From an uncultured Bacteroidota bacterium (lineage in GTDB: Bacteria > Bacteroidota > Bacteroidia > Flavobacteriales > Flavobacteriaceae): a stretch of DNA of 64,000 bases. This document shows, one piece after another, positions 4,120-55,323 of the stretch (positions within the stretch are counted from its first letter, which is position 1; the number at the start of each line of letters is the position of its first letter). Under the pieces are notes generated by a model. The model worked only from the letters and a program-made list of their open reading frames with translations, was not told where the DNA came from and ran no database searches. Both the position numbers and the translations under genes were made by a program. The stretch is taken from NCBI GenBank assembly GCA_902609185.1, contig CACLQX010000001.1, forward strand, positions 2,825 through 66,824. The letters run 5' to 3'.

Positions 4120-5610
4120 ATGAAAAAAAATTTATTATTAGTAGCATTTTTGTTTTTACTGTTTTCTTGTTCAAAGGACGATAGAGGAGATCTCGTTGGA
4201 GTTAAGGCCTCAAAATTTTTTCCCAATAAACCACAAGGAATGGTCCTAATTCCCTCCGGTTCATACGTCATGGGACCCTCAAATCCAAATGCATATATGG
4301 ATCAAAATCCTACTCTAAAAACTGTTTCTTTGAAAGCGTTTTACATGGACGAAACGGAGATCTCTAATGGTGAGTATAGACAGTTTGTTAATTGGGTCAG
4401 AGATTCGATTGTCAGAGATGAACTTGCTCGAGCAGCATATGAAAAAATTGGAGATGAGATTAATGAAGAAGATCTTCTTTGGGATTATATGCCTATCGCA
4501 AAGATATCTGAATCTGATGATGAGGAAAAATCTGCTTATCAAGAATATTTAGAGCAAAATGGTTTAGGGTTTCTAGATATTGATAATAAATTTACCTACA
4601 AACTTAATTGGGAGACTGAACTTTATTGGAATGTTGAAGATTATGTGGATTCGAATTACGCAGCTGTATTAGAGGGTGGCTCTGGAGCAGATTCATCTGG
4701 GCTTTATGAAAATCTTCCCAATCCCATTAATGAAAAAGGTGAGGCAAAAGAATATATTAAAACTAATGATTCACTCATAGGTTTTGAAGGATTTATGATT
4801 CCTGGCGATAAGACACCAAATGGTTTAAGGGCGTTCAAAACAAAAAGAATTGTATATAATTACAGGGAATTTAATATTGATCAGAATAAATGGTCTGAAT
4901 ACAAGGAGATTGAAGTTTATCCAGATACTACTGTGTGGTACAAGGATTTTGCATTTAGTTACAATGAACCAATGCACAATGATTATTTTTGGCATGATGC
5001 TTACAATGATTACCCTGTTGTAGGTGTTTCATGGGAGCAAGCCAAGGCTTTTGCTCATTGGAGGACTTTTTATAAAAACCAAAACCAAAGAAAAGCAAGA
5101 AAAAATATTCAATTAGTTAGTGAATTTAGGCTACCTACTGAAGCTGAGTGGGAGTATGCAGCAAGAGGAGGTATTGAAAGAGCTGAGTTTCCGTGGGGAG
5201 GGCCATACACATATGATGAAAAAGGTTGTTTTCTTGCCAATTTTAAACCTGAAAGAGGAGATTATGCTGCTGACCAGATTTTATATACTGCCGAGGTGGA
5301 ATCTTATTGGCCGAATGATTTCGGATTATATAATATGTCAGGAAATGTTTCAGAGTGGACTGACTCCAATTATGAAAAGGATGCAGTTGATTTAGTAGCT
5401 GGATTAAACCCAAATGTTGAAGGATCTAAAACAAATAATCAAAAAGTTGTCAGAGGTGGATCTTGGAAGGACGTGGCTCATTTTTTAAAGGTATCTACAA
5501 GAGATTATGAATATCAAAATACGAAAAGATCCTACATAGGCTTTAGAACAGTTCAAAGTTATCTTGGAGAGGATGTAGGCTTTCAAGAAAACCCTAATAA
5601 AATATTTTAA
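4120..5610 (+). CDS. gldK: T9SS/gliding lipoprotein GldK (PorK homologue), FGE-sulfatase-like domain
   Basis: 496 aa. Lipoprotein signal MKKNLLLVAFLFLLFSC followed by DLVGV..PQGMVLIPSGSYVMG. SUMF1/FGE-type motifs are present (YPVVGVSWEQAKAFAHW, RLPTEAEWEYAARGG, GNVSEWT, VVRGGSW). It is the first gene of a gldKLMN string. Confidence 0.93.
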   Translation: MKKNLLLVAFLFLLFSCSKDDRGDLVGVKASKFFPNKPQGMVLIPSGSYVMGPSNPNAYMDQNPTLKTVSLKAFYMDETEISNGEYRQFVNWVRDSIVRDELARAAYEKIGDEINEEDLLWDYMPIAKISESDDEEKSAYQEYLEQNGLGFLDIDNKFTYKLNWETELYWNVEDYVDSNYAAVLEGGSGADSSGLYENLPNPINEKGEAKEYIKTNDSLIGFEGFMIPGDKTPNGLRAFKTKRIVYNYREFNIDQNKWSEYKEIEVYPDTTVWYKDFAFSYNEPMHNDYFWHDAYNDYPVVGVSWEQAKAFAHWRTFYKNQNQRKARKNIQLVSEFRLPTEAEWEYAARGGIERAEFPWGGPYTYDEKGCFLANFKPERGDYAADQILYTAEVESYWPNDFGLYNMSGNVSEWTDSNYEKDAVDLVAGLNPNVEGSKTNNQKVVRGGSWKDVAHFLKVSTRDYEYQNTKRSYIGFRTVQSYLGEDVGFQENPNKIF

Positions 5611-5639
5611 TTAAAATTTCAAACTAAAAATTAACAATT

Positions 5640-6221
5640 ATGAAAAAACAATTTATACCCGACAATTACATGGAATTATTCTTTGGAATAGGAGCTGCAG
5701 TTGTAATTATTGGTGCTCTCTTAAAAATTATTAATGCATCACTAATATTCTCAGCTAACACTTGGCTCATTGCTGGACTATCAACTGAAGCAATAATTTT
5801 TACTCTTTCAGGTATTCAAGGTTATTTTCTTTCATCACCTGGCGAAGAGGAAGATGCTGTCAGTACTATTGCAATTGAAACTGCTGCATTACAAAAAGCA
5901 GTTGACGGAACTGTTAAAGGTCTGAATAGTTTAAATTCAAATCTAACCTCCGCATCCAAAGCCGCACAATCTATTTCTGTTCCCTCTGATTTGTCATCTA
6001 ATGCTCAATCAGTAAGCGATGGGCTTTCATCTGCAAGTGCAAGTATTGAGGAGATCAATAAATTGTATCAAAACTTAGGAAAATCTTTATCTCAAGTAAA
6101 CTCGGCCACTGATGCCTTGGACATTCCGGACGGAATTGGTGAAGAGTTAGAGAAAATGAAGAATACAATTAAGGAGTTAAATGCTAAGTATGAAGCAATG
6201 CTTGGCGCAATGAACAAGTAA
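5640..6221 (+). CDS. gldL: T9SS/gliding motor protein GldL (PorL homologue)
   Basis: 193 aa. Two N-terminal TM helices (LFFGIGAAVVIIGALLKI; WLIAGLSTEAIIFTLSG) followed by a Ser/Ala-rich cytoplasmic tail. It sits between gldK and gldM. Confidence 0.88.
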   Translation: MKKQFIPDNYMELFFGIGAAVVIIGALLKIINASLIFSANTWLIAGLSTEAIIFTLSGIQGYFLSSPGEEEDAVSTIAIETAALQKAVDGTVKGLNSLNSNLTSASKAAQSISVPSDLSSNAQSVSDGLSSASASIEEINKLYQNLGKSLSQVNSATDALDIPDGIGEELEKMKNTIKELNAKYEAMLGAMNK

Positions 6222-6223
6222 AA

Positions 6224-7918
6224 ATGGCTGGATCATCAGGAAAACAAACGAGAAGTCAACAGTCTCGTCAGAAAATGATAAACATGATGTACCTCGTGTT
6301 TATTGCCATGCTTGCATTACAGATTAGTAAAGAGGTATTGGCTACCTTAGGAATTTTAAGTGAGGATATGGAAAAATCCACTGCTGAGCTTAAAATCTCT
6401 ATTGACAATGCCTACACTATTATTGATCAAAATAGTAATCAGGATTATTACAAAATTCCATCTGAGGAGTTGCCAAAGCTAAAAGACGCAACTGACGAAT
6501 ATTTTAAATTCCTTCAAAACATGAAGGATTCTCTAATAGGAATGGATGAAAATAATTATATGATTGATATTGAATACACGGATGAGAATGGTGAAGAAAA
6601 AGTTAGTCAAAGAAGAGATTATCAAGTGATGGATAAAAGTAATTACCTTGATGAAATGTTTTTTATTAGTGATGGAGTCACTGATAAAGGACAACAGTTT
6701 ATCGATTATTTTAAAGGATTTTCAGGAAAAGTAGAAGCAGTTTTAGATTCAATTGTACAAAGAGATGCGAGAACTGTTCAATCTAATTATGGTTTTTCTG
6801 CTGCATTTTCTAACTTATCTCTAAGGTTTAAATATCCAGAAGATGACCAAGTTGTAAACAGAGATGGAATCAAGGAAGACTGGATCTATTATAACTATGA
6901 AAAGTTTCCATTAGTTGCTTCACTTGCTAAAATCACTAAGATTCAAGCAGATATTAGATCTGTTGAATATGAAATTTTAAATTCTTTGGTTAGTAAGACC
7001 AAAGACCGTCAGCTTAGTTTTGACTCGAAAAGTACATTATTAGAGACTGATCGACAAGCCTATTACACAAACAGTGTTGTTGACGCCAAGGTTGTTGTTG
7101 GAAATACTGATTCTAGTTTCAAACCTGACAGAGTTGATTTAAAAGTTGATAATGTTTCACTAAGAGATTCTGAATTTGAGGTTGTTGATGGTAAGATCAA
7201 GCTTAGTAAAAGATTCTCATCACCTGGAATTAAAAAAATATTCGGATATCTATTCTTTGATAATAATGGAAATACTGACAGTCTTCTTGTTGACACTCAA
7301 TTTTATGTTATTCCAAAACCAAATGAGGCTGTTGTATCCCCAATTAATATGCAAGTGTTTTACATTGGTTTAAGAAATGAAATTAAAGTTGCATTTCCCG
7401 GTGTTGCAGACTTGACCTCAATTAATGTTTCAGCGAAAAATGGTCAAGTAATAAGACAAAACGGAAAATATTATGCTGCTCCTGATGCAGGTGTTACTAG
7501 TATGGATGTAGTAGTTTCTGGAAAAACTAATGATGAAACAGTTACAAGCGTAGTGCCTTTTGATGTTGCTGAGGCTCCACCTGGAAGAGGTTCGGTATTT
7601 ACAGGTGTAGAAAGTTTTGTAAATACAGATGGTGTATCCAAGAACAATTTAAAATTTGGTCAGATCAGAGGAGAAAAACCACCATCTTTTTTATATGATT
7701 ATGCAATTAATGTAAAAAGATTTCAAATAAAAGTTGGAAACTTTAACACAAGGGATATCGTTGGAGATAGGGTTAATGCTAATGCATCGGCTTTGGCAGA
7801 TATTGATGCAGCCAGCTCTGGCACAAGTGTTGTAATCACTATATTAGATGCCGAAAAAATTGATGGTGATTTTAAATCGCCAACTGTAGTTGAACCATTT
7901 GTTTTAACTTTAAAATAA
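6224..7918 (+). CDS. gldM: T9SS/gliding protein GldM (PorM homologue)
   Basis: 564 aa. The hallmark N-terminus is ..SRQKMINMMYLVFIAMLALQISKEVL (a single TM), followed by a long periplasmic region. It starts 2 nt after gldL. Confidence 0.93.
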   Translation: MAGSSGKQTRSQQSRQKMINMMYLVFIAMLALQISKEVLATLGILSEDMEKSTAELKISIDNAYTIIDQNSNQDYYKIPSEELPKLKDATDEYFKFLQNMKDSLIGMDENNYMIDIEYTDENGEEKVSQRRDYQVMDKSNYLDEMFFISDGVTDKGQQFIDYFKGFSGKVEAVLDSIVQRDARTVQSNYGFSAAFSNLSLRFKYPEDDQVVNRDGIKEDWIYYNYEKFPLVASLAKITKIQADIRSVEYEILNSLVSKTKDRQLSFDSKSTLLETDRQAYYTNSVVDAKVVVGNTDSSFKPDRVDLKVDNVSLRDSEFEVVDGKIKLSKRFSSPGIKKIFGYLFFDNNGNTDSLLVDTQFYVIPKPNEAVVSPINMQVFYIGLRNEIKVAFPGVADLTSINVSAKNGQVIRQNGKYYAAPDAGVTSMDVVVSGKTNDETVTSVVPFDVAEAPPGRGSVFTGVESFVNTDGVSKNNLKFGQIRGEKPPSFLYDYAINVKRFQIKVGNFNTRDIVGDRVNANASALADIDAASSGTSVVITILDAEKIDGDFKSPTVVEPFVLTLK

Positions 7919-7919
7919 A

Positions 7920-8828
7920 ATGAAAAAAATATTCTTACTCTCTTTATTGGTGTTCTCTGCTGATGATATGTTTGGTCAAGCTAACTTATTGAATGCGAAA
8001 AATCCTCTAGAAGTTGGTGATTCTTCATCAAGTAAAGCAATCGTTGAGTTTATGGATTATGAATATGTAGATGATAAAGATATTTTATGGTCCAAAGTGG
8101 TTTACGAATTTATTGATCTTAATGAAAGGTTAAATTTTCCATTACTTTTCCCTGTTAATGATACAAAATATGATGATACAAGAAAATCATTATGGAGAAT
8201 TATTAGAGAAAATATTGAAAATGGAAAAATTAGTGAGGTTTATGACTCCAACAACGATAACTTCACAGAAGCTTCAAGAATAATAGGAAAAGATAGTACT
8301 GATTTAGAAGCCAATATTTATAAAAACTATAATATTAGTGACATTTACAAGTCCAAATATGTTCCAGAATCTTTTGTTCCAAGGGAAATTGCCTCCTCTG
8401 CTGATATTTTTGGATATGTTATAAAGGGTGTATGGTATTTTGATAAAATTCATGCTGAACTGAGATACAGGTTATTGGCAATACAGCCATACGGAACTGA
8501 TCTTAAGACATCTGTTGACGGTGAAGAAACTGAGACAGGATATTTTTGGATATGGTACCCATCTATAAGAGAGATTTTAGATGATCATTTAGTTTTTAAT
8601 GATAAAAACAACAATAACAGAGTCTCATTTGATGAACTCCTAATTAACAGAAGATTTAGCTCGTACATATACAAGTATGATAATGTTTACGGAGATAGAG
8701 AAATTAGAGATTATATCAGACAGAGAGATAATGAATCATATGCTCAATGGCAAACTAGAATCGTGATGGAATCCGAAAGAATCAAGAAAGAAATTCTAGA
8801 CTTTGAAATTGACATGTGGGGTTACTAA
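7920..8828 (+). CDS. gldN: T9SS/gliding protein GldN (PorN homologue)
   Basis: 302 aa with a signal peptide, starting 1 nt after gldM. The IKGVWYFDKIHAELRYRLLAIQPYG segment resembles the conserved GldN/PorN core. Confidence 0.85.
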   Translation: MKKIFLLSLLVFSADDMFGQANLLNAKNPLEVGDSSSSKAIVEFMDYEYVDDKDILWSKVVYEFIDLNERLNFPLLFPVNDTKYDDTRKSLWRIIRENIENGKISEVYDSNNDNFTEASRIIGKDSTDLEANIYKNYNISDIYKSKYVPESFVPREIASSADIFGYVIKGVWYFDKIHAELRYRLLAIQPYGTDLKTSVDGEETETGYFWIWYPSIREILDDHLVFNDKNNNNRVSFDELLINRRFSSYIYKYDNVYGDREIRDYIRQRDNESYAQWQTRIVMESERIKKEILDFEIDMWGY

Positions 8829-8840
8829 GAATGTTAACTC

Positions 8841-9848
8841 ATGAAACCCAATATTGTCAAAGTTTTTTCTCTATTGTTCATAGTCGCGTGTCTATGCTTT
8901 AAGTCTTATTCACAAGATCCAGTCTTTACACAGTTTTACAATATTCCTGATTATTTAAATCCATCTTTTACAGGCTTTTCTAAAGGAACTAAGGTTGGTA
9001 TTATAAACAGAACCCAGTGGTTTGGTCTGAATTATGGTTTAAACTCACAATTTTTCTTTATTGATAATTATTTTGGAGATGACGCTGAAACTGGAGTAGG
9101 TTTGGGACTAAACATAATGAATCATCATGAAAGTGTGACAAGATATAATTTTACTCAGGTCAATCTAAATTATGCCCATCATTTAAAATTATCAAAGGAA
9201 TGGTATTTTAACCCAAGCCTGACAGTTGGTTTGGGTGTAAAGGATTATACTTTTGATTATTTACTTGAAGATCAAATTCTAATTTTCCAAGGAATTATTA
9301 ATGCAAATTCAAATGATCCTATTTTATTAAATGATAGTTTATCTTTTTTTGATATGTCAGCTGGACTATTATTTTACACAGAAAATATTTGGTTTGGTGC
9401 TAGCTTAAAACACCTGACAAATCCAAAAATTTCATTCACTGGCGATGGAACAATCAAATTGGATCACTTTCTCTCAGTTCATGGAGGTTATAAATGGGAT
9501 TTGAGTAATAGAAGTATCAGGGAAGATTTGGATTTAAATATTGATTTAAATTATATGAGACAGGGCAATTATGATCGATTTGATGTAGGAACTAGATTAA
9601 AGTACAACGATTTTAGCTTGGGAGTTTTTGGCGTTGTAGCTCCAACAGATGTCACTGGTAGGTCTCATAAGTTGACATCATTTAATATTGTTGGAAACAT
9701 TGATTTTGATCGATTCAGATTTGGATACTCATATGACTTAAATGTGAGTGAGCTAAGGAATACAAAAGGAGTTTTTGAAATTTCAATTTCATATAAGTTT
9801 GATTCCTTCTTTGGAAATAATGGGCCTAACCCGTGTGAATGTATGTAA
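8841..9848 (+). CDS. Type IX secretion system membrane protein, PorP/SprF family
   Basis: 335 aa. A signal peptide is followed by QDPVFTQFYNIPDYLNPSFTGF, which is the family signature (QDPxFSQY..NP...G). The rest has a beta-barrel-like alternating pattern. Confidence 0.85.
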   Translation: MKPNIVKVFSLLFIVACLCFKSYSQDPVFTQFYNIPDYLNPSFTGFSKGTKVGIINRTQWFGLNYGLNSQFFFIDNYFGDDAETGVGLGLNIMNHHESVTRYNFTQVNLNYAHHLKLSKEWYFNPSLTVGLGVKDYTFDYLLEDQILIFQGIINANSNDPILLNDSLSFFDMSAGLLFYTENIWFGASLKHLTNPKISFTGDGTIKLDHFLSVHGGYKWDLSNRSIREDLDLNIDLNYMRQGNYDRFDVGTRLKYNDFSLGVFGVVAPTDVTGRSHKLTSFNIVGNIDFDRFRFGYSYDLNVSELRNTKGVFEISISYKFDSFFGNNGPNPCECM

Positions 9849-12800
9849 TTAAAATGAAGAATTTTAGAAACATATCGCTAATAATTTTTACTTTTTGGAC
9901 TTTACTGTTCTCTGTCAATATTCAATCTCAGGTTAATAATATTAGCCAAAACAGAACATATGACACTGATGCAACGAAAAACACTGTTTATTTTATTGGC
10001 AATAATGAGTGTATCAATATTACCATTGATCTAAACATGATATCATTCCAAGATCAAAATGGGAATTACTATGGATTTGATTTGGGTGATGGAAATAACT
10101 ATCAACCAATCCCCGATAATTGGGATTTTGAAATTACCAATTTACCATCACCAGGAAGTGAATTATCCTCCGATGGTAAAACCTTTAAATATTGTACTGG
10201 ATCCGAAAACCCAAATAATACTTTCACCATAAGAATAAGAATTTTTGATAAAAATACAGGTACTGATATTTCGAATCTAGGTAATGTAAATCTTACCTTA
10301 TATATAAGAGATAAATTTAAAATTGGTAATGGAATCTGGAATGCCTGTGTGAGTCGATTTATTCTCTCTGTTAGTGAAACTATTGATGGAAATAATCAAT
10401 CTGCTTGTTCACCCTACACGATTAAAGTTTACAAATTAAATGAAAAAGACGCCGGACCAATTTATGAAAATACACAAGATAATAACACTTGGAATTTAGA
10501 TCTTGATATTGGACAATATCAGGCAGATATTACGGACAGTTGTGGTCAGCTCATTGAAAATTACTTAATTGATATTAGGGATGCTTACACATTTTCCGTT
10601 GATATTCTCTTTGAGGGATTCCAGTGTTTTGATGATAACAGTGGGCGAGTTGTGGTACAAATTAAAGGTGCTCAAGTATTTCAAGGTGGTGATTTGGATG
10701 GACAAATTAAATGGAGTCTAACAAATGCTAATGGTGATATAATTAGAAGTAATGGTACAAATACTGGACAGTCGAATTATTCATCTAATCAGGGTGGAGG
10801 ACCTCCTTTTGATTATGGTGTTGTAGATTTAGCAATTGAAATTCTGGGCCTCCCTGAGGGTACTTATACATTCTATTTTGAAGATGCTAATGGTTGTACT
10901 GAGGAAAAACAAATTACAATTGAAAAGTCAGTTCCAATTACAGCAGGTCTATTGGATGGTGCAGTTGATCAATTAGCATGTCACGGAGATACAAATGGTA
11001 AATTATGCTTTAAAGCTTCTGGAGGTTGGACTGAGCCATGGGATGGTAATACAATTAATACAGATGCTTGGGGAGCTCCTTACACTTTTACACTTTTAAA
11101 TTTAACAACTGGACAGGGATATAGTTCAGTTAGTGTAACTAATCATTTTGATAACAGCGGAAATCAAGATGGTTATCAAACATGTTTTAATAATCTTCCT
11201 GCTGGTAAATATCGATTGACAGTTGGAGAAACTGTTGCGAATGATCCTTATGACAGCACTAAAACGATTTTGTGTGAGAGAAGTTTTCAGGAGTTTGAAA
11301 TTACTGAGCCTGACCCAATAACAACTGCTCAATCAACGATAAAAGGTATTACATGTAAGGGTGATGATGATGGTGCTATTAATTTAGTCGTTGCTGGCGG
11401 AACATCCCCATTTACTTATTCTTGGACTAAATCAGGTGATACATCCTATTCTGCATTAACTGAGGATTTGAGTGACTTATCACCAGGAACATACAATGTT
11501 ACGATCACAGATGCCAATGGTTGTTCGATTTCTAGATCATTTACAATTGAAGAACCTGACACCTTAGAAATGCAAGCGTCTATTTTAACAGAAATATTAT
11601 GTTATGGTGATGACGGGTCAATAAAAGCTGAGATTACAAAACAATCTGATGGTCCATATGTATTTAGAATAAGCGGTACGGACTTTAACAACAATATAAT
11701 TACACCAGTAGGTGTAACACTGTCAGATGTAAATAATCTGAGTACAATATTTGTAGTAAAGGCAGGTACTTACATAGTTTCTGTAACTGATGCTAATGGT
11801 TGTCAATTGGCTGAGGAAAATATTACCCTTACACAGCCTGATGCTCCACTTACAATTGATAGTTCTACCATTCAAAATATTTCATGTTTTGGAGCTGATG
11901 ATGGCTCAATTGATCTAGTAGTTTCAGGTGGTACAGGTGCTTACACGTATCAGTGGTCTAATGGAGCAACCTCTGAGGATTTATCCAACTTAGCACCAGG
12001 AACATATACAGTTACAATAACAGATGTTAATCAGTGTTCAACTTCAGAACAATATACTGTTACTGAGCCAGCACTATTAGTTGCTTCCGGAACTAAATCT
12101 TCTCACAATGGTTTTGAAATTACATGTAATGGTGCTGATGATGGATCAATTGACCTAACAGTTTCTGGAGGAACCAGTCCTTATATATATTCTTGGACAA
12201 AAACAGGTGATGATTCTTACACTAGTTCTTCAGATGATATATCAGACCTGTCACCTGGAATATACCTAGTAAATGTAATTGATGCAAATGGATGTAGTTC
12301 AGATCAGACATTTACTATTTCTGAACCAGATGAATTATTAATTTCTTCATCAATTTTATCAGCCATTGGTTGTTACGATGGAAATGCAAACATTCAAGTC
12401 GATGTTGCTCAGGCATCTGTTGGTCCTTATGTGTTCACATTAGTTGGAAATGATTACAACAATCAGCCTGTTTCTTTGACTTCAAGTTCATTAGTTGAAT
12501 CCGATTTGGATGCTGTGTTTAATACTGTTAAAGCTGGGGTGTATACAATAAGAGTTACGGACAGAAATAATTGTTTTAAAGAACTCCCATTAACAATCTC
12601 TCAACCTGATGCAATCACAATAGACTATCAAGTTTCTGATTATAATGGCTTTAGTGTAAGCTGTGTGGATTCTAGCGATGGTTCAATAAATATTTCAGTT
12701 GTTGGTGGTACAATAAACAATACTGACTATACATTCTCATGGTCTACAAGTGACGGTTCAGGTCTTGATTTAAGTTCATTGAATCAAAATGGTCTTTCTG

Positions 12801-15673
12801 CAGGAACATACAATTTAATTGTGAGTGATGATAATGGATGTAGTATTCAGCAAGAGATTGTATTAGATGAGCCAACAGAAATTACAATTACTGAAAATAT
12901 ATCTAATTACAGTGGTTATCAAATTAGTTCATCTGGTGGTAGTGATGGTACTATAGTATTGAATGTAGTTGGTGGCACAAATAGTTTTACTTACAAATGG
13001 TCGACTAATGATGGTAGCGGCCTGGCTGCAAATCAAAAAGATCAGAGTGGTCTTTCTGCTGGCACATATACAGTTGTTGTTACTGATTCAAACGGATGCT
13101 CTGTTACAAAAACTTACACATTAGAAGAACCTACTGCATTGCTGATTTCGATTGACAATAGTGTTGTCTCAAATATTGCATGTTTTGAAGGAAACACAGG
13201 AAAAATTAAAATTGATATCGATCAAGCTTCTGTTGGACCATATACTTATGAAATCTTTGGTACTACTTACACTGGTGATCCGTACCTAAACAGAGTTGAT
13301 AATATTGATCTGCTAACTTACACCTTTACTGGCCTGGTAGCTGGTAAGTATCAGATAACAGTTACTGATGGTAACGGAAATTCAAATACAACAGGTATTA
13401 AAGAAATTACTCAGCCTGAAACCCCTTTAATTGTTACAGCTGTTTTGTCAACATATGGTAATTTTAATGTTGGGTGTCAAACTGATAACGATGGTTCAAT
13501 TGATATTACAGTTTCAGGTGGTAATGTTGCAGGAAATGCAAATTACACCTACGTCTGGTCAACAACAGATGGAAGTGGCTTAATTCAAGGTGATGAAGAC
13601 CAATCTGGATTGGGCCCAGGAACATACACGGTTTCTGTAACAGATGAGAATAATTGTACAGCAACCCAATCCTTTACTTTAACTCAGGCGCAACCATTGA
13701 ATTATGTATTGGATAGAAAACAAGATATTACGTGTTTTGGAGATGATGATGGAGCAATTGAAATTTCAGTGAATGACGGTACAGGCGTTTACACATACGA
13801 TTGGTCAACCACTAACGGGAGTGGACTGGTTCAAGGCCAGCAAGACCAATCTGGACTAAGTCCTGGTGATTATAAATTGATTTTATCTGACTCATGTACA
13901 ACTCTTGAGTATAATTATACGATCAGATCGCCTGGAGAACTAGAAATTTCACTTGATGAAGTTCAAAATGTTTTATGTTTCGGAGATAGTACTGGAAAAA
14001 TATCTGTTACAGTATCTGGCGGAACACAACCTTACAATTACGTATGGATAGATAATTTTGGAAACACTTATAACAGAGATATTGGGAATGTCTTTAACTC
14101 AGGAAACTTATCAAATATTCCTGCTGGAACATATACCTTAACTTTAACAGATTCTAATCAATGTAGTGCAACATTGCCGCCAGTAGAGATTACTGAGCCG
14201 GCAGATTTATTATTGTCATTTGATAAAACAGACCTGAGTTGCTACAACTCCAATGATGGTACAATAACTGTAACTGCATCAGGTGGTGTATCACCTTACA
14301 CATATACTTGGAGTGATTTAGGAAATGGAAGTTCAAGAGATAATCTTGCTGCAGGAACATATTCAGTCATAGTTAAAGATGCAAACGAATGTGAGGAAAC
14401 AGTTGATATTGTTATTGCAAATGCTGAATTATTTGATGTAGATCCAGTGATAACTCAAATCAGCTGCTTTGGAGCAAATGACGGAAGTATTGAATTAAAT
14501 TTTGTTGGTGGTGTTGGAAATGTAAATGTTCAGTGGACTGATGACTCAACTGCTGGCGTAAATAGAAACAATTTATCTCCTGGAGTTTACTCAGTTTTAA
14601 TTACGGATGAATCGTCATGTACTATTGAAAGAGACTTCACAATTATTGAGCCTCAAGAAATAGAAATTACAGGAATAATCACAAATGCTATTGATTGTAT
14701 TGAACCGAATAGCGGCTCAATTGATTTGCAAGTTGCTGGTGGGACTGCCCCCTACACATTCTTGTGGTCCAACGGCTCAACAACTGAAGATCTTACAAAT
14801 GTCCCTGCAAACAACTATTTAGTTACTGTTACAGATTCTAATGGTTGTATTTCTGAAAAGGAATTTGAAATAACAAGACAGGACGATTTAGAGATCATTT
14901 TAGATACAGAATTATTTGCAATTTGTGATACAAGAGAAGTCTTCCAGAAAAGTACTGTTTCATTTTCTGGTGGTGTTGCCCCGTACACAATAACATGGTC
15001 CAATGGTGTTGTTACGGGTTCAAATGGTGAAATAATGGATACAAATGTTGAAGGTTCATATGAAGTTACTGTTACCGACTTTCTTGGTTGTAGCGAGTCA
15101 TTGATTTTTAATGTGAGTTTACCTGAGATTGGTTTTCCAGAATTTGATTACACATCATTTTATTTTACAAACTATGGTGGGTTATCAATCAATGATCCAA
15201 TCACATTCACAAACCAATCATCTCAAGAGTATTTCTCTGTGCTTTGGAATTTTGGAGATGGAAATACATCAACAGATGAAAACCCAACACATACATATTC
15301 AGCTAGGGGATGGTATGATGTAACACTTACTGTTGAATTTATTTTAGGGTGTTCATACTCAATTACAAAAACTCTATACATAGGAGATGATTACGAAATG
15401 GTTATACCAAATGCTTTTACTCCAAATCTTGATAATATAAATGAAACATTTAGACCAGTCTATTATGGAATTACCAGTATTAGATTAACTGTATATGATA
15501 CTTGGGGAACACTTATATATTACGAAGATTCAACAGAAAATGAAATGATAGGATGGGACGGAACAATCAATGGTAAAAAAGCTGAGAACGGAAACTTCTT
15601 TTATCAAGTTTCTGCTACTACATACACAGGAAATTTGATTGAAAAAAATGGTGCATTTACATTAATAAGATAA
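9839..15673 (+). CDS. Giant cell-surface adhesin: SprB-type repeats + PKD domain + T9SS type-B C-terminal sorting domain
   Basis: 1944 aa; a more likely start is ATG 9854 (MKNFRNISLIIFTFWTLLFSVNIQSQ signal). There are at least 15 tandem Cys-containing modules of the C.G..DGSI.L.VSGG..PY.Y.W...G......L..L..G.Y.V.V.D.NGC type. A PKD-like segment (WNFGDGNTSTDENPTHTYSARGWYDVTLTV) lies at about 15205-15335. The type-B sorting domain (VIPNAFTPNLDNINETFRP...GWDG...G.FFYQV) lies at about 15398-15670. Confidence 0.9.
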   Translation: MYVIKMKNFRNISLIIFTFWTLLFSVNIQSQVNNISQNRTYDTDATKNTVYFIGNNECINITIDLNMISFQDQNGNYYGFDLGDGNNYQPIPDNWDFEITNLPSPGSELSSDGKTFKYCTGSENPNNTFTIRIRIFDKNTGTDISNLGNVNLTLYIRDKFKIGNGIWNACVSRFILSVSETIDGNNQSACSPYTIKVYKLNEKDAGPIYENTQDNNTWNLDLDIGQYQADITDSCGQLIENYLIDIRDAYTFSVDILFEGFQCFDDNSGRVVVQIKGAQVFQGGDLDGQIKWSLTNANGDIIRSNGTNTGQSNYSSNQGGGPPFDYGVVDLAIEILGLPEGTYTFYFEDANGCTEEKQITIEKSVPITAGLLDGAVDQLACHGDTNGKLCFKASGGWTEPWDGNTINTDAWGAPYTFTLLNLTTGQGYSSVSVTNHFDNSGNQDGYQTCFNNLPAGKYRLTVGETVANDPYDSTKTILCERSFQEFEITEPDPITTAQSTIKGITCKGDDDGAINLVVAGGTSPFTYSWTKSGDTSYSALTEDLSDLSPGTYNVTITDANGCSISRSFTIEEPDTLEMQASILTEILCYGDDGSIKAEITKQSDGPYVFRISGTDFNNNIITPVGVTLSDVNNLSTIFVVKAGTYIVSVTDANGCQLAEENITLTQPDAPLTIDSSTIQNISCFGADDGSIDLVVSGGTGAYTYQWSNGATSEDLSNLAPGTYTVTITDVNQCSTSEQYTVTEPALLVASGTKSSHNGFEITCNGADDGSIDLTVSGGTSPYIYSWTKTGDDSYTSSSDDISDLSPGIYLVNVIDANGCSSDQTFTISEPDELLISSSILSAIGCYDGNANIQVDVAQASVGPYVFTLVGNDYNNQPVSLTSSSLVESDLDAVFNTVKAGVYTIRVTDRNNCFKELPLTISQPDAITIDYQVSDYNGFSVSCVDSSDGSINISVVGGTINNTDYTFSWSTSDGSGLDLSSLNQNGLSAGTYNLIVSDDNGCSIQQEIVLDEPTEITITENISNYSGYQISSSGGSDGTIVLNVVGGTNSFTYKWSTNDGSGLAANQKDQSGLSAGTYTVVVTDSNGCSVTKTYTLEEPTALLISIDNSVVSNIACFEGNTGKIKIDIDQASVGPYTYEIFGTTYTGDPYLNRVDNIDLLTYTFTGLVAGKYQITVTDGNGNSNTTGIKEITQPETPLIVTAVLSTYGNFNVGCQTDNDGSIDITVSGGNVAGNANYTYVWSTTDGSGLIQGDEDQSGLGPGTYTVSVTDENNCTATQSFTLTQAQPLNYVLDRKQDITCFGDDDGAIEISVNDGTGVYTYDWSTTNGSGLVQGQQDQSGLSPGDYKLILSDSCTTLEYNYTIRSPGELEISLDEVQNVLCFGDSTGKISVTVSGGTQPYNYVWIDNFGNTYNRDIGNVFNSGNLSNIPAGTYTLTLTDSNQCSATLPPVEITEPADLLLSFDKTDLSCYNSNDGTITVTASGGVSPYTYTWSDLGNGSSRDNLAAGTYSVIVKDANECEETVDIVIANAELFDVDPVITQISCFGANDGSIELNFVGGVGNVNVQWTDDSTAGVNRNNLSPGVYSVLITDESSCTIERDFTIIEPQEIEITGIITNAIDCIEPNSGSIDLQVAGGTAPYTFLWSNGSTTEDLTNVPANNYLVTVTDSNGCISEKEFEITRQDDLEIILDTELFAICDTREVFQKSTVSFSGGVAPYTITWSNGVVTGSNGEIMDTNVEGSYEVTVTDFLGCSESLIFNVSLPEIGFPEFDYTSFYFTNYGGLSINDPITFTNQSSQEYFSVLWNFGDGNTSTDENPTHTYSARGWYDVTLTVEFILGCSYSITKTLYIGDDYEMVIPNAFTPNLDNINETFRPVYYGITSIRLTVYDTWGTLIYYEDSTENEMIGWDGTINGKKAENGNFFYQVSATTYTGNLIEKNGAFTLIR
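11561..13933 (+). repeat. In-frame 3x higher-order repeat (units of 771, 801 and 801 nt) inside the adhesin gene
   Basis: Each unit is one long 'B' module (C[YF].G....I...I.QAS.GPY.F...G..Y......AG.Y.I.VTD.N.C) plus two SprB-type 'A' modules. The unit boundaries I mapped are 11561-12331, 12332-13132 and 13133-13933. All are in frame with 9839. Confidence 0.75.
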
Positions 15674-34494: not shown

Positions 34495-36786
34495 TTAGTC
34501 AACACTGTAGCATAGTAGCTCATCCTCGTCACCTACCAGTACCAAAAATGTTTGTTTTTCCTTGGATGAAAAATTAAAATACTTTGACGAAAAAATAGGA
34601 AAACGATCAACCTTTTTGGTTTTATTAAAAAGGTAAAGTTCTTTAGTATCAAGGTTTAGTAAGGAGACATAATCTTTGTAAATTTTTGGATCAACATAGT
34701 TGCCATAAGGAATCTTAAATTCATTTTCATTTACTAAAAGTTTATTTTCAGTAAGCATAACTAATAAATCTTGATTTGAGGCCACGTTATTTATTTTGTC
34801 GGTAAAAGGCTGATATGAAACTTCTCCAGAAATATCAATCTTAACAATTTCATTTCCTTCACTTAGGAATAATAATTTATTTTGATTTTTAAAGACAGTT
34901 GACTCATACTTTAAATCTTTAGGTAATTTAATTCTTACCCTCCCTCTTCTATCAAATATTTCAAAAGTTTTATCATCATAATATTGAATAAGAAAATCTT
35001 TATTGAGTATTCTTACATGATCCATACTATTAGTTATATTTTTCTTAGTCTTTGTGCCTTTAAAGCCTTTGACAATATTGAGTTTTGAGTCATACATCGA
35101 AACAGTACGTCCTTCCTGAACAACCAATCTGTAATTTTTATTTTTGTCATAATCAAAAACAGATAAATATTTTTGAGTCCCACTTGCCTTATTCATAATT
35201 TTTTTGACAACATTTCCTTTTATATCAAGGATATAAAGATATTCAAGGGTTAGAAAAACAAATTGTAATCTATTGTTTTTATACATATCAATTTGATGTA
35301 CATCACTAATAATCTTTGATTCAAAATTTTTTGACCATATTTTATTGCCACTTAAATCTGATAGAATTATTTTATTATCTGAGTCCTGAAAAAAAATATT
35401 CAAATCGTTAGTTCTATGATTTTTAATCAGTGAGGGTGTAATCACAATTTCTTTAGAGTGTTTTGTTTTAAAAACTAATTCTAACTTTCGAATTGACTGT
35501 GTATTTTCATTTGGACTTGTAAATAGTGAAAAATAAGAGAGATTTTTACTGATTTCCTCACTAGTGTATATGTACTTATTGCTAAAATCTTCACTATTAC
35601 TATCATTATACAAAGCAAATTTTACAGATTTAGATGGAATTTTTTTTCTAAACCCCTTAAATTCATTCTCCTTCGACAGGGTTAAATTATTTCTAAAATT
35701 CAAAATAATATTTTCTAATTCGTTTTCAGTCATTGAAAACAACACTAAGTTTCCAAATTTTGTAAAATATTTGAAGTTGTTAAGTTTATTAAAACCAAAA
35801 AGATCAATCTGAAAATTATTTTTTGATAACTCAATAATTTCTTGTCCTCGGTAAAATTGATTCCTTATTATTGATTCACTTAAGTTGATTTGATCAGCAT
35901 CAGTAAAATTCAAAATAAATAGAGTATCATTCTTAATTGTTAATTCACCAATTTCAGAAACATTCTGATACACTGAATCAATTTCATAAGTAATTATTGA
36001 TTCATCTTGTTTTAGTGAGTTTAAGTTTTTTTTGATCTCACTAAATTCAAATGAAATCCTTTCAAGTTTAGAAAAGTTTGTTGGAACTATATCAAAAAAA
36101 TCTGTTTTAGTTTTTTTTAAATTATTTAAAAGTTGAATATTTCTTTTTTGGTCACTTTCAGCAAATCCCAATACATTAATTTCGTCATTCAAAATATCAA
36201 ATTCGTAGGATATAAATTCAGAAAACTTTTCTACATTTTGGGGGATATCTTTGAATTTTAATCCGTCGTAGTTTTCCCTCACTATAAGAGAAATATTTTT
36301 TGATTTATTTTCATAAAGTTTTTGAAATTTTTCAAAATCAATATTTGAACTGTAAGTTGAGTTACGGATTACATTTTCAATTAAAAGTTTGTTTTTTGAT
36401 AAATACAAAAAATTATTTTGCTGTGTCAGAAAATTAGAATTTTTATCAATGTAAATATTCTTACCACCATAACTTACTGAGTCAAGTAATTTGTTTGATA
36501 GTGTATCAGAAAATTCATGTATTAAAATAAGATCTAAGATATTTTTTGATGTATTATGAAAGCTTATCAACATTTCACCTTTTGGTTTATAATTTTCAAT
36601 TAATGATAAATCAAAACCTGTAGACTCTGAGATAAATTCAAGTGTTTGATAATTAATATTTTCATATTCTTTAATTAGTATTGTTAAAACTGGATCGTCG
36701 GGGATATCTTCAATAATTAATTTCGTTTGTTCATTTTCTGAGCAAGAAATAAGTAATACAATTAAAATAATATAAAGCCTCTTCAT
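34495..36786 (-). CDS. Large hypothetical lipoprotein (C-terminal half repeat-like, possibly beta-propeller)
   Basis: 763 aa with lipobox VLLISC and no motif I can name. It is Asn/Lys/Ile-rich. The C-terminal roughly 330 aa show recurring strand-turn segments (..ILSDLSGNKIWS.., ..YILDIKGNVVKK.., ..VSMYDSKLNIVKG.., ..FEIFDRRGRVRI.., ..IVKIDISGEVSY..). Confidence 0.7.
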   Translation of the reverse strand: MKRLYIILIVLLISCSENEQTKLIIEDIPDDPVLTILIKEYENINYQTLEFISESTGFDLSLIENYKPKGEMLISFHNTSKNILDLILIHEFSDTLSNKLLDSVSYGGKNIYIDKNSNFLTQQNNFLYLSKNKLLIENVIRNSTYSSNIDFEKFQKLYENKSKNISLIVRENYDGLKFKDIPQNVEKFSEFISYEFDILNDEINVLGFAESDQKRNIQLLNNLKKTKTDFFDIVPTNFSKLERISFEFSEIKKNLNSLKQDESIITYEIDSVYQNVSEIGELTIKNDTLFILNFTDADQINLSESIIRNQFYRGQEIIELSKNNFQIDLFGFNKLNNFKYFTKFGNLVLFSMTENELENIILNFRNNLTLSKENEFKGFRKKIPSKSVKFALYNDSNSEDFSNKYIYTSEEISKNLSYFSLFTSPNENTQSIRKLELVFKTKHSKEIVITPSLIKNHRTNDLNIFFQDSDNKIILSDLSGNKIWSKNFESKIISDVHQIDMYKNNRLQFVFLTLEYLYILDIKGNVVKKIMNKASGTQKYLSVFDYDKNKNYRLVVQEGRTVSMYDSKLNIVKGFKGTKTKKNITNSMDHVRILNKDFLIQYYDDKTFEIFDRRGRVRIKLPKDLKYESTVFKNQNKLLFLSEGNEIVKIDISGEVSYQPFTDKINNVASNQDLLVMLTENKLLVNENEFKIPYGNYVDPKIYKDYVSLLNLDTKELYLFNKTKKVDRFPIFSSKYFNFSSKEKQTFLVLVGDEDELLCYSVD

Positions 36787-51455: not shown

Positions 51456-51489
51456 TAGGTAATTAAAAAAAAATTCGGATATTTGATTC

Positions 51490-52944
51490 ATGGTTGTGAG
51501 TTGTAATAACGGGACTTTATCTGCTTTTGTTCCGACTGATGAAAATCCTTGGGATATTTCAAAAATTTTGCTTGTCAATAGACGACTAGGATTTGGAATA
51601 AAACACTCAGATATACAATCTAAATTATCTTTAAGCCCTGAAGAACTGATAGATCAGTTAATTGATAATGCTAAAAATTTACCATTAACACCTGATCCAG
51701 GTTGGGCAAATTGGACCAATACAGATTTCAGAAATGCAGGTGGAAACAGAGGACCTTTTTTCAGAAATCATCAAAGAATTATGTTTGATGATTTTTTAAA
51801 AAATGGTATGCGTGATCGACTTACATTATTTTGGAGTAATCATTTTGTTACGGAATACTATATGTATAATAATCCTGCATATACTTTCAGATATTATAAC
51901 AATTTACAAGCTAATGTTTTTGGTAATTTTAAAAATTTCGTTTCGATAATTGGACTTGATGATGCAATGCTCATGTATTTGAATGGCTATGAAAATAGAA
52001 ATAATGCTCCTAATGAAAATTATGCAAGAGAGCTTTATGAATTGTTTACATTAGGTGAAGGTAATGGTTATACCCAAGATGATATCACGGAGACTGCTAG
52101 AGCTTTAACGGGTTACAATAACAGACAGGACGGTGGGCCAATATATTTTAATCCAAATAGGTTTGATGATGGAGAAAAAACTATTTTTGGAAGAACTGGT
52201 AACTGGAATTATGACGACGTAATCAATATTTTGTTTGAAGAAAAAAGTGATTTAATTTCAGAATTTATTGTTAGAAAAATATACAAACATTTCGTTAGTC
52301 CTGATGTTAATAATGATATAATCAATGAGCTATCAAATTATTTCAAAGACAATAATTTTGAGTTAGAGCCACTTTACAGAAAATTATTTAAAAGTGAGCA
52401 CTTTTTTAATTCTTTTGCAAGTAATGTATTAATAAAAAGCCCCATTGATTTAATGGTCCAAATTGAAAAAGAGTTTAATTTTGAAAAGCCTGATAACTTC
52501 AATGAAAATTTATTTAATTATTTAAGAGCCAGATGTAGTGATATGGGTCAAGAAATTCTTAATCCTGTTGATGTTGCAGGTTGGCAGGAAAACCATGATT
52601 GGATTTCCACAGGGACACTACCAATGAGGTGGGAATTTTCGGATTATTTGCTATCAAGATACTGGATTAAAAATAAAGAACAGTTCAGAAATTATGCAAT
52701 AAGTATTGTTGGAATTGATGAAACTAATCCGTTAGAAATAGTTAAAAAAATTAATAAATATATGTTTTGCAGCTATGAAATGATGGATGACGAGTTAAAT
52801 GATGCTTTAGCTGCTTTTAAAGGTGATGTTCCAGATGATTATTTTAATGGTGGAGGATGGACCTTAAATGAAACTTATGCACCCAATCAAGTTTATGCAT
52901 TGATATTATTTTTTGTCAAACTTCCTGAATATCAACTAAAATGA
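51490..52944 (+). CDS. DUF1800 family protein
   Basis: 484 aa with LTLFWSNHFV and ARELYELFTLGEGNGYTQDDI, typical DUF1800 blocks. There is no signal peptide, and a stop codon lies 2 codons upstream of the ATG. The stop overlaps the next gene's start (ATGA). Confidence 0.82.
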   Translation: MVVSCNNGTLSAFVPTDENPWDISKILLVNRRLGFGIKHSDIQSKLSLSPEELIDQLIDNAKNLPLTPDPGWANWTNTDFRNAGGNRGPFFRNHQRIMFDDFLKNGMRDRLTLFWSNHFVTEYYMYNNPAYTFRYYNNLQANVFGNFKNFVSIIGLDDAMLMYLNGYENRNNAPNENYARELYELFTLGEGNGYTQDDITETARALTGYNNRQDGGPIYFNPNRFDDGEKTIFGRTGNWNYDDVINILFEEKSDLISEFIVRKIYKHFVSPDVNNDIINELSNYFKDNNFELEPLYRKLFKSEHFFNSFASNVLIKSPIDLMVQIEKEFNFEKPDNFNENLFNYLRARCSDMGQEILNPVDVAGWQENHDWISTGTLPMRWEFSDYLLSRYWIKNKEQFRNYAISIVGIDETNPLEIVKKINKYMFCSYEMMDDELNDALAAFKGDVPDDYFNGGGWTLNETYAPNQVYALILFFVKLPEYQLK

Positions 52945-54551
52945 GTAAAAAGAACTATTTAGACTCAAAAAAGCACAAGGAAGAGCATTCCAGATGGGAC
53001 AGGAGAGGGTTTCTTAAAGTCTTAGGAATTGCCGGTGCAGGTTCTATTTCGCTAGGAAATACTAATATTTCTGTTCTCAACTCCAATTTTTTGACTAACG
53101 CTTTGTCTGACTCTTTATCTGACAGAGTTTTAGTTTTAATTAGACTTAAGGGAGGTAATGATGGGTTAAACACGATTATACCAGTTTATGATTATGATAC
53201 TTATGTTTCTAAAAGACCATCAATTCATATTCCTAAAAATAATTTAATTAGATTAAGTGATGATTTTTCAATGCCTGATCATATGGGTAATTTATCTAGT
53301 TTTTGGGAAAATGGCAAAATGAGAGTGGTTAATGGTGTAGGTTATGAGGGGCAAAATTTATCACATTTTACTTCGTCTGATTATTGGGCAACTGGATCAA
53401 CCAACAAAAGCGATATGGTATCTTCTGGCTGGCTTGGTAGATATTATGATGAAAAATACTTTGATTACACAACAAATCCACCTGAAAAACCAGTTGCCGT
53501 TCAAATTGGAAGTAATGCGAACCTGATTTTTAATGGAGCTTCTAGAAATTATGCTTTTGCTGTTGCTAATGAGTCTAGGTTAGAAAGAGTTGCTGAAAGA
53601 GGTGAATTTTATTCAACTCAAAATCTTCCTGATTGTACACATGGCGACCAATTGGAATTTTTAAGAAGAGTTAGTAATACAACTTACGATTATGCAAAGG
53701 TTATTAATGATGCATTCAAATCTTCAACAGATTATAATGGGTACGAAACTGAAGAAGGCTTAGATAAACAACTTAGGCTTGTTGCCAAACTGATTAAAGG
53801 TGGTCTAGGTTCAAAAATTTATATGGTTTCAATTGGTGGTTTTGACACTCATGGAAATCAAGCCTTAACTCATCAGTACCTTTTATCTAGTTTATCATCT
53901 GCTGTGAAATCATTTTATGATGATTTGGCAGAAGATGGTTATGATTCAAAAGTATTATCAATGACTTTTTCAGAATTTGGAAGAAGAGTTGGTGAAAATG
54001 GTTCCGAAGGCACAGATCATGGATCAGCTGCCCCTGTTATGCTCTTTGGTTCTCCATTAAGAGGAAGTGGTTTTATTGGTAGCCACCCAAGCTTATCAAA
54101 TCTAAATAGAAGAGGAAATATGTATAATACAATTGATTTTAGATCAATATACCAAACTGTATTAACTGATTGGTTGTGTGGTGATTCAAATTTCATTAAT
54201 TCAGCTATGCTTGGAAATGAGTATGATTTATTAGGCCTTGGATTTGGATGTCAGGATACAGATGCTGTTGATTATGATAACTTATTGAATTATCATGCCC
54301 CAATATATGCAAATTATGATCAAAGAGTTAGCCTAAATTTAAGAATTCAACAAACTCATAAAGTAAATATTAAAACTTTTGATATTTTAGGGAGGCATGT
54401 CAATACCATTTTTAGTGGAGATTTAATCAGGGGTGAACATAAATTTTCTATAAGCCACGATAAAAACGGAAAGTTATCAGCAGGACAATATTTTTACAGA
54501 ATAAATTTGGTAGGTGGACCTACATTAAGCAAAGCGTTTGTAGTTAGATAG
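52941..54551 (+). CDS. DUF1501 family protein with Tat signal and T9SS type-A C-terminal sorting domain
   Basis: 536 aa. Twin-arginine motif DRRGFLKVLGIAGAG (RR at 53001-53006). DUF1501 blocks LKGGNDGLNT, GGFDTHGNQ and SEFGRR..ENGSEGTDHG. The last roughly 80 aa (VSLNLRI..KVNIKTFDILGRHV..GEHKFSI....LSAGQYFYRINL....SKAFVV) fit the Por secretion C-terminal domain. Confidence 0.88.
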   Translation: MSKKNYLDSKKHKEEHSRWDRRGFLKVLGIAGAGSISLGNTNISVLNSNFLTNALSDSLSDRVLVLIRLKGGNDGLNTIIPVYDYDTYVSKRPSIHIPKNNLIRLSDDFSMPDHMGNLSSFWENGKMRVVNGVGYEGQNLSHFTSSDYWATGSTNKSDMVSSGWLGRYYDEKYFDYTTNPPEKPVAVQIGSNANLIFNGASRNYAFAVANESRLERVAERGEFYSTQNLPDCTHGDQLEFLRRVSNTTYDYAKVINDAFKSSTDYNGYETEEGLDKQLRLVAKLIKGGLGSKIYMVSIGGFDTHGNQALTHQYLLSSLSSAVKSFYDDLAEDGYDSKVLSMTFSEFGRRVGENGSEGTDHGSAAPVMLFGSPLRGSGFIGSHPSLSNLNRRGNMYNTIDFRSIYQTVLTDWLCGDSNFINSAMLGNEYDLLGLGFGCQDTDAVDYDNLLNYHAPIYANYDQRVSLNLRIQQTHKVNIKTFDILGRHVNTIFSGDLIRGEHKFSISHDKNGKLSAGQYFYRINLVGGPTLSKAFVVR

Positions 54552-55323
54552 AACTAAAAATCTTTTCCATTTTTTTCTCTTCATCATCAGCCAAATCTTT
54601 GTCAACTAGAATTCTACCGCTATACTCATCAGTTATAAATTTATTTCTTGATGATATATCTAGTTGGACTTGAGGAGGAATAACAAAGAATGAACCAGCA
54701 GAAGCTCCCCTTTCGACAGGGACAATTGCAAGACCATTTTTCACACTTGAGCGAATTTTTTTATAGGAGACGAGAAGTGCATCATCAATTTTTTTTTCAA
54801 ATTCTTTAGACTTCTTAATTAATGCACTTTCTTCTTTTTCAGTTTCTTTCATTATGCTGTTTAATTCCTCTTTTTTGTGATCTAAATGAGTTTTTCTCTC
54901 ATCTTTAAGGTTGGATGTTTCATTCAATTTTTCTTTTTTCTCTTCTATTTCAGACTTTGACGCATTGATCTGTTTTTCACAATATTGAATTTCTAATTCT
55001 TGATATTCAATTTCTTTACTAAGAGACTCAAAAGCCCTATTATTTCTAACATTTTTTTGTTGATCATTGTATTTACTTATCATTCCTCTCGATTCTTCGA
55101 TCTTATTTAATTTTTCTTTAATAATATTTTCAATCTCAGTCAATTCTTCATTTATTTTATTAATTCTAAAGTCCAAACCTTCGACCTCATCTTCTAAATC
55201 TTCTACCTCAAGTGGCAGTTCTCCTCTTACACTTTTGATTTTATCTATTCGTGAATCAATTAGTTGCAAATCATACATTGCTCTCAATTTCTCTTCGACT
55301 GAATACTCAACTTTTTTAGCCAT
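54544..55323 (-). CDS. Coiled-coil DUF164-type protein (Nif3 partner) with a cysteine-less 'zinc-ribbon' tail
   Basis: 259 aa with a long heptad-rich coiled coil. The C-terminal segment VERGASAGSFFVIPPQ....FITDEYSGRILV aligns by eye to the C.GC....P...../..C..CGRIL ribbon of this family. It sits immediately downstream of Nif3, as is usual. Confidence 0.78.
   Translation of the reverse strand: MAKKVEYSVEEKLRAMYDLQLIDSRIDKIKSVRGELPLEVEDLEDEVEGLDFRINKINEELTEIENIIKEKLNKIEESRGMISKYNDQQKNVRNNRAFESLSKEIEYQELEIQYCEKQINASKSEIEEKKEKLNETSNLKDERKTHLDHKKEELNSIMKETEKEESALIKKSKEFEKKIDDALLVSYKKIRSSVKNGLAIVPVERGASAGSFFVIPPQVQLDISSRNKFITDEYSGRILVDKDLADDEEKKMEKIFSSI

Follow-up and report, generated by a model that had tools for sequence, protein, structure and literature searches.

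Export through the Tat (twin-arginine translocation) pathway followed by passage through the type II secretion system (T2SS) is an established form of two-step secretion, as exemplified by the phospholipase C PlcH of Pseudomonas aeruginosa, and Tat hitchhiker pairs are known in hydrogenase-2 (HybO/HybC) and dimethyl sulfoxide reductase (DmsA/DmsB). The T9SS (type IX secretion system) is also known to move folded proteins, and to our knowledge it has no piggyback cargo. Its substrates are described as using a general secretory (Sec) signal (PMC9251779, PMC7073777, PMC12618676), and the T9GPred rule, based on 102 experimental substrates, allows no Tat signal (PMC10515386). The open-access text that we searched on Tat together with T9SS yielded nothing beyond general statements and the T9GPred rule, and a T9SS cargo fed by Tat was nowhere described in it. 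Here we analyse a DUF1800–DUF1501 gene pair in a 64,000-nt stretch of DNA from an uncultured Flavobacteriaceae bacterium (hereafter the window; 31% G+C; all coordinates are positions in it). The DUF1501 protein carries a twin-arginine signal at one end and a divergent T9SS type-A sorting domain at the other, and its DUF1800 neighbor has no signal of its own. The likeliest mechanism, which we favor with moderate confidence, has a folded DUF1501 metallohydrolase cross the inner membrane by Tat and the outer membrane through the T9SS.

The DUF1800 gene (51490–52944, forward strand) encodes 484 amino acids and matches PF08811 over residues 31–482 (312 bits against a cut-off of 26.1; E 9e-93). The DUF1501 gene (52941–54551, forward strand) encodes 536 amino acids and matches PF07394 (78.4 bits against a cut-off of 27; E 8e-22). 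The stop codon of the former and the start codon of the latter overlap as ATGA at 52941–52944 (forward strand), an arrangement of translational coupling, and an in-frame TGA lies at 51484–51486 (forward strand), two codons 5' of the DUF1800 ATG, so that no N-terminal extension of DUF1800 is possible. The initial annotation had given these open reading frames (ORFs), the overlap and the upstream stop, and had concluded that DUF1800 lacks a signal peptide; all of this is borne out by the sequence. It had also taken the two families to be a conserved pair. When each GTDB species was scanned through one genome, 593 relatives came up, of which the best 79 loci were examined; DUF1800 lies immediately 5' of DUF1501 in 73 of these 79, and the intergenic gap is 30 nt or less in 62 of 76 related loci. 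The two genes form a self-contained, translationally coupled operon. The whole pair is present in two tandem copies, side by side, in four loci (L009, L013, L023 and L041; Aquimarina), and in L009 the signal and tail sequences of the two copies are near-identical.

From N- to C-terminus, the DUF1501 protein (52941–54551, forward strand) consists of a Tat signal, a domain of the alkaline-phosphatase superfamily and a T9SS type-A C-terminal domain (CTD). The signal (53001–53105, forward strand), identified by motif and hydropathy, has R21-R22-G-F-L-K as its twin-arginine motif, together with an h-region of weak hydrophobicity and a c-region that is polar. The near-consensus motif reported by the initial annotation, D-R-R-G-F-L-K, occupies residues 20–26, and none of the 30 residues after it is charged. 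Low hydropathy of the h-region is typical of Tat signals and not of Sec signals; the mean Kyte–Doolittle value is 1.26 here (1.13 in the best 19-residue window), and the median among relatives is 1.1. Without exception, 79 of 79 relatives have the pattern RR-x-F-[LIMFV], with F at +3 and L, I, M, F or V at +4. DUF1501 proteins from Rhodobacter and Vibrio plasmids likewise begin with RR-x-F-L signals. The N-terminal 62 residues alone score 17.7 bits with TIGR01409, above the curated cut-off of 16.7 bits, which the full-length protein does not reach, and the N-termini of 44 of 75 relatives match this model at E≤0.0075. The signal peptide is predicted to end near residue 55. DUF1501 is the only Tat-like protein found in the window. 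Twin-arginine motifs or Tat predictions have been noted previously for DUF1501 proteins (PMC5122149, PMC3542564), and a Tat system has been reported in a Flavobacteriaceae genome (PMC5561996).

Just ahead of the twin arginines, the n-region contains a second motif, H12-x3-H16-x2-W19 (52974–52997, forward strand), which is invariant in 31 orthologues. Its consensus, H-D-x-E-H-x-x-W-x-R-R, is kept from Flavobacteriaceae and Saprospiraceae to Rhodothermales (also in L025, L030 and L042–L052). Because the n-regions of signal peptides are normally unconserved, this motif may be bound by a partner, a chaperone or a metal, and it is possibly the site at which DUF1800 and DUF1501 would assemble in the cytoplasm.

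The tail of DUF1501, comprising its last ~88 residues (54285–54548, forward strand), is a seven-strand beta-sandwich that we identify as a divergent copy of the T9SS type-A sorting domain from an AlphaFold2 model, TIGR04183 and profile comparison with solved CTDs. In the model the seven strands span residues 449–535 with a predicted local distance difference test (pLDDT) value of ~80–87, and they are joined to the core by a linker of low confidence (residues 439–447). Survey of the relatives, which the initial annotation had proposed, showed that 68 of 70 orthologous tails, from several phyla, match TIGR04183 at E≤0.01 (best 8.9e-15). Among the close orthologues, all 31 match TIGR04183 at E≤0.1 and 24 match PF18962 at E≤0.01; one relative (L055) reaches the curated PF18962 cut-off of 27 bits. 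A profile built from the orthologous tails finds the CTD of RgpB (5HFS at 6e-7, 5AG8 and 5AG9), as well as 7PQ4, the F. johnsoniae cargo CTDs 8GLK_D and 8GLJ_D, and mirolase (8QB1). The alignment shows three conserved tail motifs, DxxG+xV, GxY and a terminal K/R, which in the window read FDILGRHV, GQYFYRI and SKAFVVR. At the level of the family, the assignment of the tail to the T9SS type-A sorting domains is firm.

What follows the catalytic domain of DUF1501 depends on the lineage. Phyla of the Fibrobacterota–Chlorobiota–Bacteroidota (FCB) group have the CTD; a Latescibacterota metagenome-assembled genome (L064:6037-7464) has EF-hand/dockerin-like repeats instead, Vibrio maritimus (L081:4552-6315) has an F5/8 type C domain instead, and the Rhodobacter protein (L080:4064-5269) has nothing past the catalytic domain. 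This dependence on lineage fits a module that serves for targeting or anchoring and suits the way in which each host exports its proteins, and it speaks against a purely structural role of the tail.

The nearest relatives of the window pair are from uncultured marine Flavobacteriaceae. The best 79 of the 593 loci extend to Saprospiraceae, Chitinophagales, Rhodothermales, Kapaibacteria/Melioribacter, Chlorobiota, Marinimicrobia and Latescibacterota, and where the DUF1501 C-terminus is intact, the CTD is nearly always present. Tat signal, CTD and signal-less partner are kept together in ~75 species-level genomes of several phyla, and Tat signal and CTD with DUF1800 immediately 5' recur as far as Ignavibacteriota, Chlorobiota and Marinimicrobia. 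By comparison, when ~1 Mb of related loci plus the window was searched with a CTD hidden Markov model, the remaining CTD proteins whose N-terminus is intact were found to start with ordinary Sec-type signals.

The window itself contains T9SS genes, all on the forward strand: gldK (4120–5610; Pfam FGE-sulfatase, GldK type), gldL (5640–6221; GldL_N), gldM (6224–7918; GldM_1st/2nd/3rd), gldN (7920–8828; GldN) and porP/sprF (8841–9848; PF11751, E 3e-48). They are followed by a gene for a 1944-residue SprB-repeat adhesin with a type-B (CHU_C) CTD (9839–15673; SprB repeats E 4e-116; CHU_C 39.5 bits, cut-off 27). The presence of gldKLMN, porP/sprF and this type-B cargo establishes that the genome has a T9SS. 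In this T9SS-bearing genome, the dual-signal architecture of DUF1501 is real; it is also conserved and under selection. The adhesin also has a PKD domain, and positions 4120–15673 as a whole constitute a T9SS/gliding block.

The catalytic domain of DUF1501 (53124–54254, forward strand) contains the motifs GGNDG (residues 71–75), SHF (141–143), FDTH (301–304) and GTDHG (357–361), all of which are invariant columns in the orthologue alignment. A PDB sequence search gave no match for either DUF1501 or DUF1800. With probability ~1.0, Foldseek matched the DUF1501 model to 3LXQ, to many sulfatases, to LtaS and to an alkaline phosphatase. The invariant motifs and these matches place DUF1501 in the alkaline-phosphatase superfamily, and the protein is, as far as its model can tell, most likely a metal-dependent hydrolase of the alkaline-phosphatase/sulfatase type. 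The Asp-His motifs occur in pairs, which points to a metal site, and the F5/8 type C domain of the homologue in Vibrio may indicate substrates linked to glycans.

DUF1800 is predicted to be a soluble protein. Its highest 19-residue Kyte–Doolittle value is 0.98, which led us to reject it as a membrane protein, and its AlphaFold2 model is all-alpha, with a predicted template modelling score of 0.85. Foldseek comparison of this model with the PDB gave no match better than E=4, so that the fold offered no functional clue; by this measure DUF1800 may have a fold without a solved representative. Homologues are uniformly 474–486 residues long and share many invariant polar motifs that resemble an active or binding site. 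The N-termini of ~60 relatives have no h-region, and in Flavobacteriaceae and Saprospiraceae no hydrophobic stretch is present there. In Rhodobacter and Vibrio, DUF1800 is also signal-less, beside a DUF1501 with a Tat signal. A conserved Cys lies within the first 5–12 residues of the Flavobacteriaceae and Saprospiraceae proteins (L001–L041; Cys5 in the window, 51502–51504), in the context S-C-N-x-x-x-L-x-P-Y-x-P-x-x-x-N-P-W. A lipobox at Cys5 was considered and rejected, as no h-region precedes it.

In at least 13 loci of Chitinophagales, Chlorobiota and some Rhodothermales (L043, L055, L056, L061, L063, L067–L070, L072, L076, L077 and L079), DUF1800 starts with M[DN]RRxF[FL]. The stretch that follows is mostly polar or proline-rich and lacks an h-region, a plausible one being recognized in L069 only. 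These N-termini are not counted as evidence of export, because none of the nine tested scored as a Tat signal with TIGR01409.

The route that we favor would proceed as follows. DUF1501 would fold in the cytoplasm, where it probably gains its metal site, and the Tat translocase would recognize its twin-arginine signal and export it to the periplasm, with cleavage of the signal peptide near residue 55. The enzyme would then cross the outer membrane through the T9SS and either be set free or become anchored at the cell surface. DUF1800, having no export signal, may bind DUF1501 before export and ride along, at least through Tat. In genetic terms, a signal-less protein co-transcribed with a Tat substrate is the classic mark of a Tat hitchhiker; this is circumstantial, and a cytoplasmic helper fits it equally well. 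We regard co-export of DUF1800 through Tat as possible, at somewhat less than an even chance. That the two proteins would assemble in the cytoplasm and cross both membranes together, by Tat and then by the T9SS, on one twin-arginine signal and one CTD is unlikely. The initial annotation had proposed export by Tat and delivery to the T9SS, perhaps with DUF1800 included. Of this, the two signals are genuine and conserved together, and T9SS genes are present in the window, so that a Tat-then-T9SS route is a reasonable proposal; the co-export of DUF1800 is the circumstantial part.

Several results weigh against the proposed Tat-to-T9SS route. At full length, the window DUF1501 scores 14.0 bits with TIGR01409, below the 16.7-bit cut-off, and neither tatA nor tatC was recognized among the scanned ORFs of the 64-kb window. 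With TIGR04183 the protein scores 13.2 bits, or 18.2 bits when only the tail is scanned, where the curated cut-off is 23 bits, and with PF18962 it scores 14.1 bits against 27. There is no Tat-signal cargo among the 102 experimental T9SS substrates of T9GPred (PMC10515386). As to the partner, it is from gene order only that we infer binding of DUF1800 to DUF1501, and TIGR01409 matched none of the nine M[DN]RRxF[FL] N-termini of DUF1800 tested, that of L069 included. The initial annotation had called the C-terminal region a type-A sorting domain and had proposed a TIGR04183 search of the 536-residue protein; the call stands for the family, given the orthologous tails and the solved CTDs, whereas the window copy falls short of both cut-offs, and of that of TIGR04183 also as an isolated tail.

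Among the alternatives, the one that fares best concerns the partner. DUF1800 could be a cytoplasmic maturation or proofreading factor like TorD or DmsD, which binds the n-region or the enzyme and lets go before Tat export. It is soluble, all-alpha and signal-less in every phylum sampled, its gene is immediately 5' of and translationally coupled to that of DUF1501, and the invariant H-x3-H-x2-W before the twin arginines would be unusual unless something binds it. However, at 484 residues DUF1800 greatly exceeds the known Tat chaperones in size, its invariant polar motifs have the look of an active site or a binding site, and the M[DN]RRxF[FL] starts in at least 13 loci, though without a TIGR01409 score, hint at an extracytoplasmic location. 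We consider such a role rather unlikely.

A second alternative is that DUF1501 is exported by Tat only and stays in the periplasm, its tail being an Ig-like domain of structural or binding function that only resembles a CTD. The sub-threshold TIGR04183 and PF18962 scores of the window tail, weak matches of the orthologous tails to FlgD Ig-like domains and the lack of any documented T9SS cargo with a Tat signal (PMC10515386) are in its favor. Yet TIGR04183 is matched by nearly all of the orthologous tails, with E-values down to 8.9e-15, and their best matches among solved structures are bona fide T9SS CTDs. Moreover, the tail is always at the extreme C-terminus with K/R at its end, and it is confined to T9SS-bearing phyla, other extracellular modules being found elsewhere. 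Retention in the periplasm is accordingly improbable in our estimation. The last alternative, that the arginines are incidental and DUF1501 takes the ordinary Sec-to-T9SS route, draws on the sub-threshold full-length TIGR01409 score and on the use of Sec by all characterized T9SS cargo (PMC12618676, PMC9251779), but is very improbable in view of the invariance of RR-x-F-[LIMFV] across several phyla, an h-region of a polarity not typical of Sec signals, the passing TIGR01409 score of the N-terminal fragment and the Tat prediction for DUF1501 in unrelated phyla (PMC5122149).

The family is present in hundreds of species-level genomes from most T9SS-bearing phyla. If the proposed Tat-to-T9SS route is correct, the T9SS accepts proteins that have been folded, and perhaps loaded with a metal or a partner, in the cytoplasm, and the range of enzymes available to the Bacteroidota surface and also to engineered display would be wider. 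DUF1501 and DUF1800, which are large and abundant families and core in marine Flavobacteriaceae, would gain a genetically testable handle. Should joint export also be true, the pair would represent both the first Tat-fed and the first piggyback T9SS cargo, conserved across the FCB superphylum. Since T9GPred drops proteins with a Tat signal, cargo of the DUF1501 type would be systematically missed by it.

The surroundings of the pair gave no clue to its function, either in the window or in related loci. In the window it is flanked by genes for an esterase, NIF3, LpxK and lipoyl synthase, and in related loci by those for methionyl-tRNA synthetase, an LD-carboxypeptidase and a deacetylase. The DUF1501 stop overlaps the 3' end of a convergent gene (54544–55323) by 8 nt (54544–54551), which leaves no space for a terminator between the two genes; this gene encodes a zinc-ribbon protein, and NIF3 comes next after it. 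Elsewhere in the window, two ORFs have no Pfam match at E≤1e-4, namely one of 371 residues directly 5' of gldK (2946–4061, forward strand) and one of 763 residues (34495–36786, reverse strand).

Each of the known systems resembles the DUF1800–DUF1501 pair in part. The DUF1501 modules of Planctomycetes and Verrucomicrobia often have a twin-arginine signal as well and are always paired with a conserved neighbor, but that partner is PSCyt/PSD1 instead of DUF1800, and there is no T9SS tail (PMC3542564). PhoD and PhoX are, like DUF1501, extracytoplasmic metallohydrolases exported in folded form by Tat (PMC4223295 for PhoD), whereas DUF1501 belongs to the alkaline-phosphatase/sulfatase fold family and has a dedicated partner and a T9SS tail. 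In the Tat hitchhiker pairs, as here, one subunit bears the twin-arginine signal and its co-transcribed neighbor does not; in contrast to them, no redox cofactor is evident in DUF1501 or DUF1800, their complex is putative, and the carrier would meet a second translocon. Canonical T9SS type-A cargo, such as RgpB, mirolase and the F. johnsoniae enzymes, shares with DUF1501 a seven-strand CTD of ~80 residues with the type-A motifs. DUF1501 differs from it in its twin-arginine signal, its divergent CTD that remains below the cut-offs, and the signal-less partner gene attached to it.

The closest parallel to the proposed route is Tat-then-T2SS secretion, in which a folded enzyme is likewise exported by Tat and then taken up by an outer-membrane system that accepts folded periplasmic cargo. 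For DUF1501 a cleavable beta-sandwich at the C-terminus would instead select the T9SS for the second step. The initial annotation knew of no description of such a route, in agreement with our literature search. Because Tat-to-T2SS secretion is established and the T9SS moves folded proteins, however, the route is less radical than that annotation implied: a Tat-fed T9SS is an extension of the known principle of two-step secretion.

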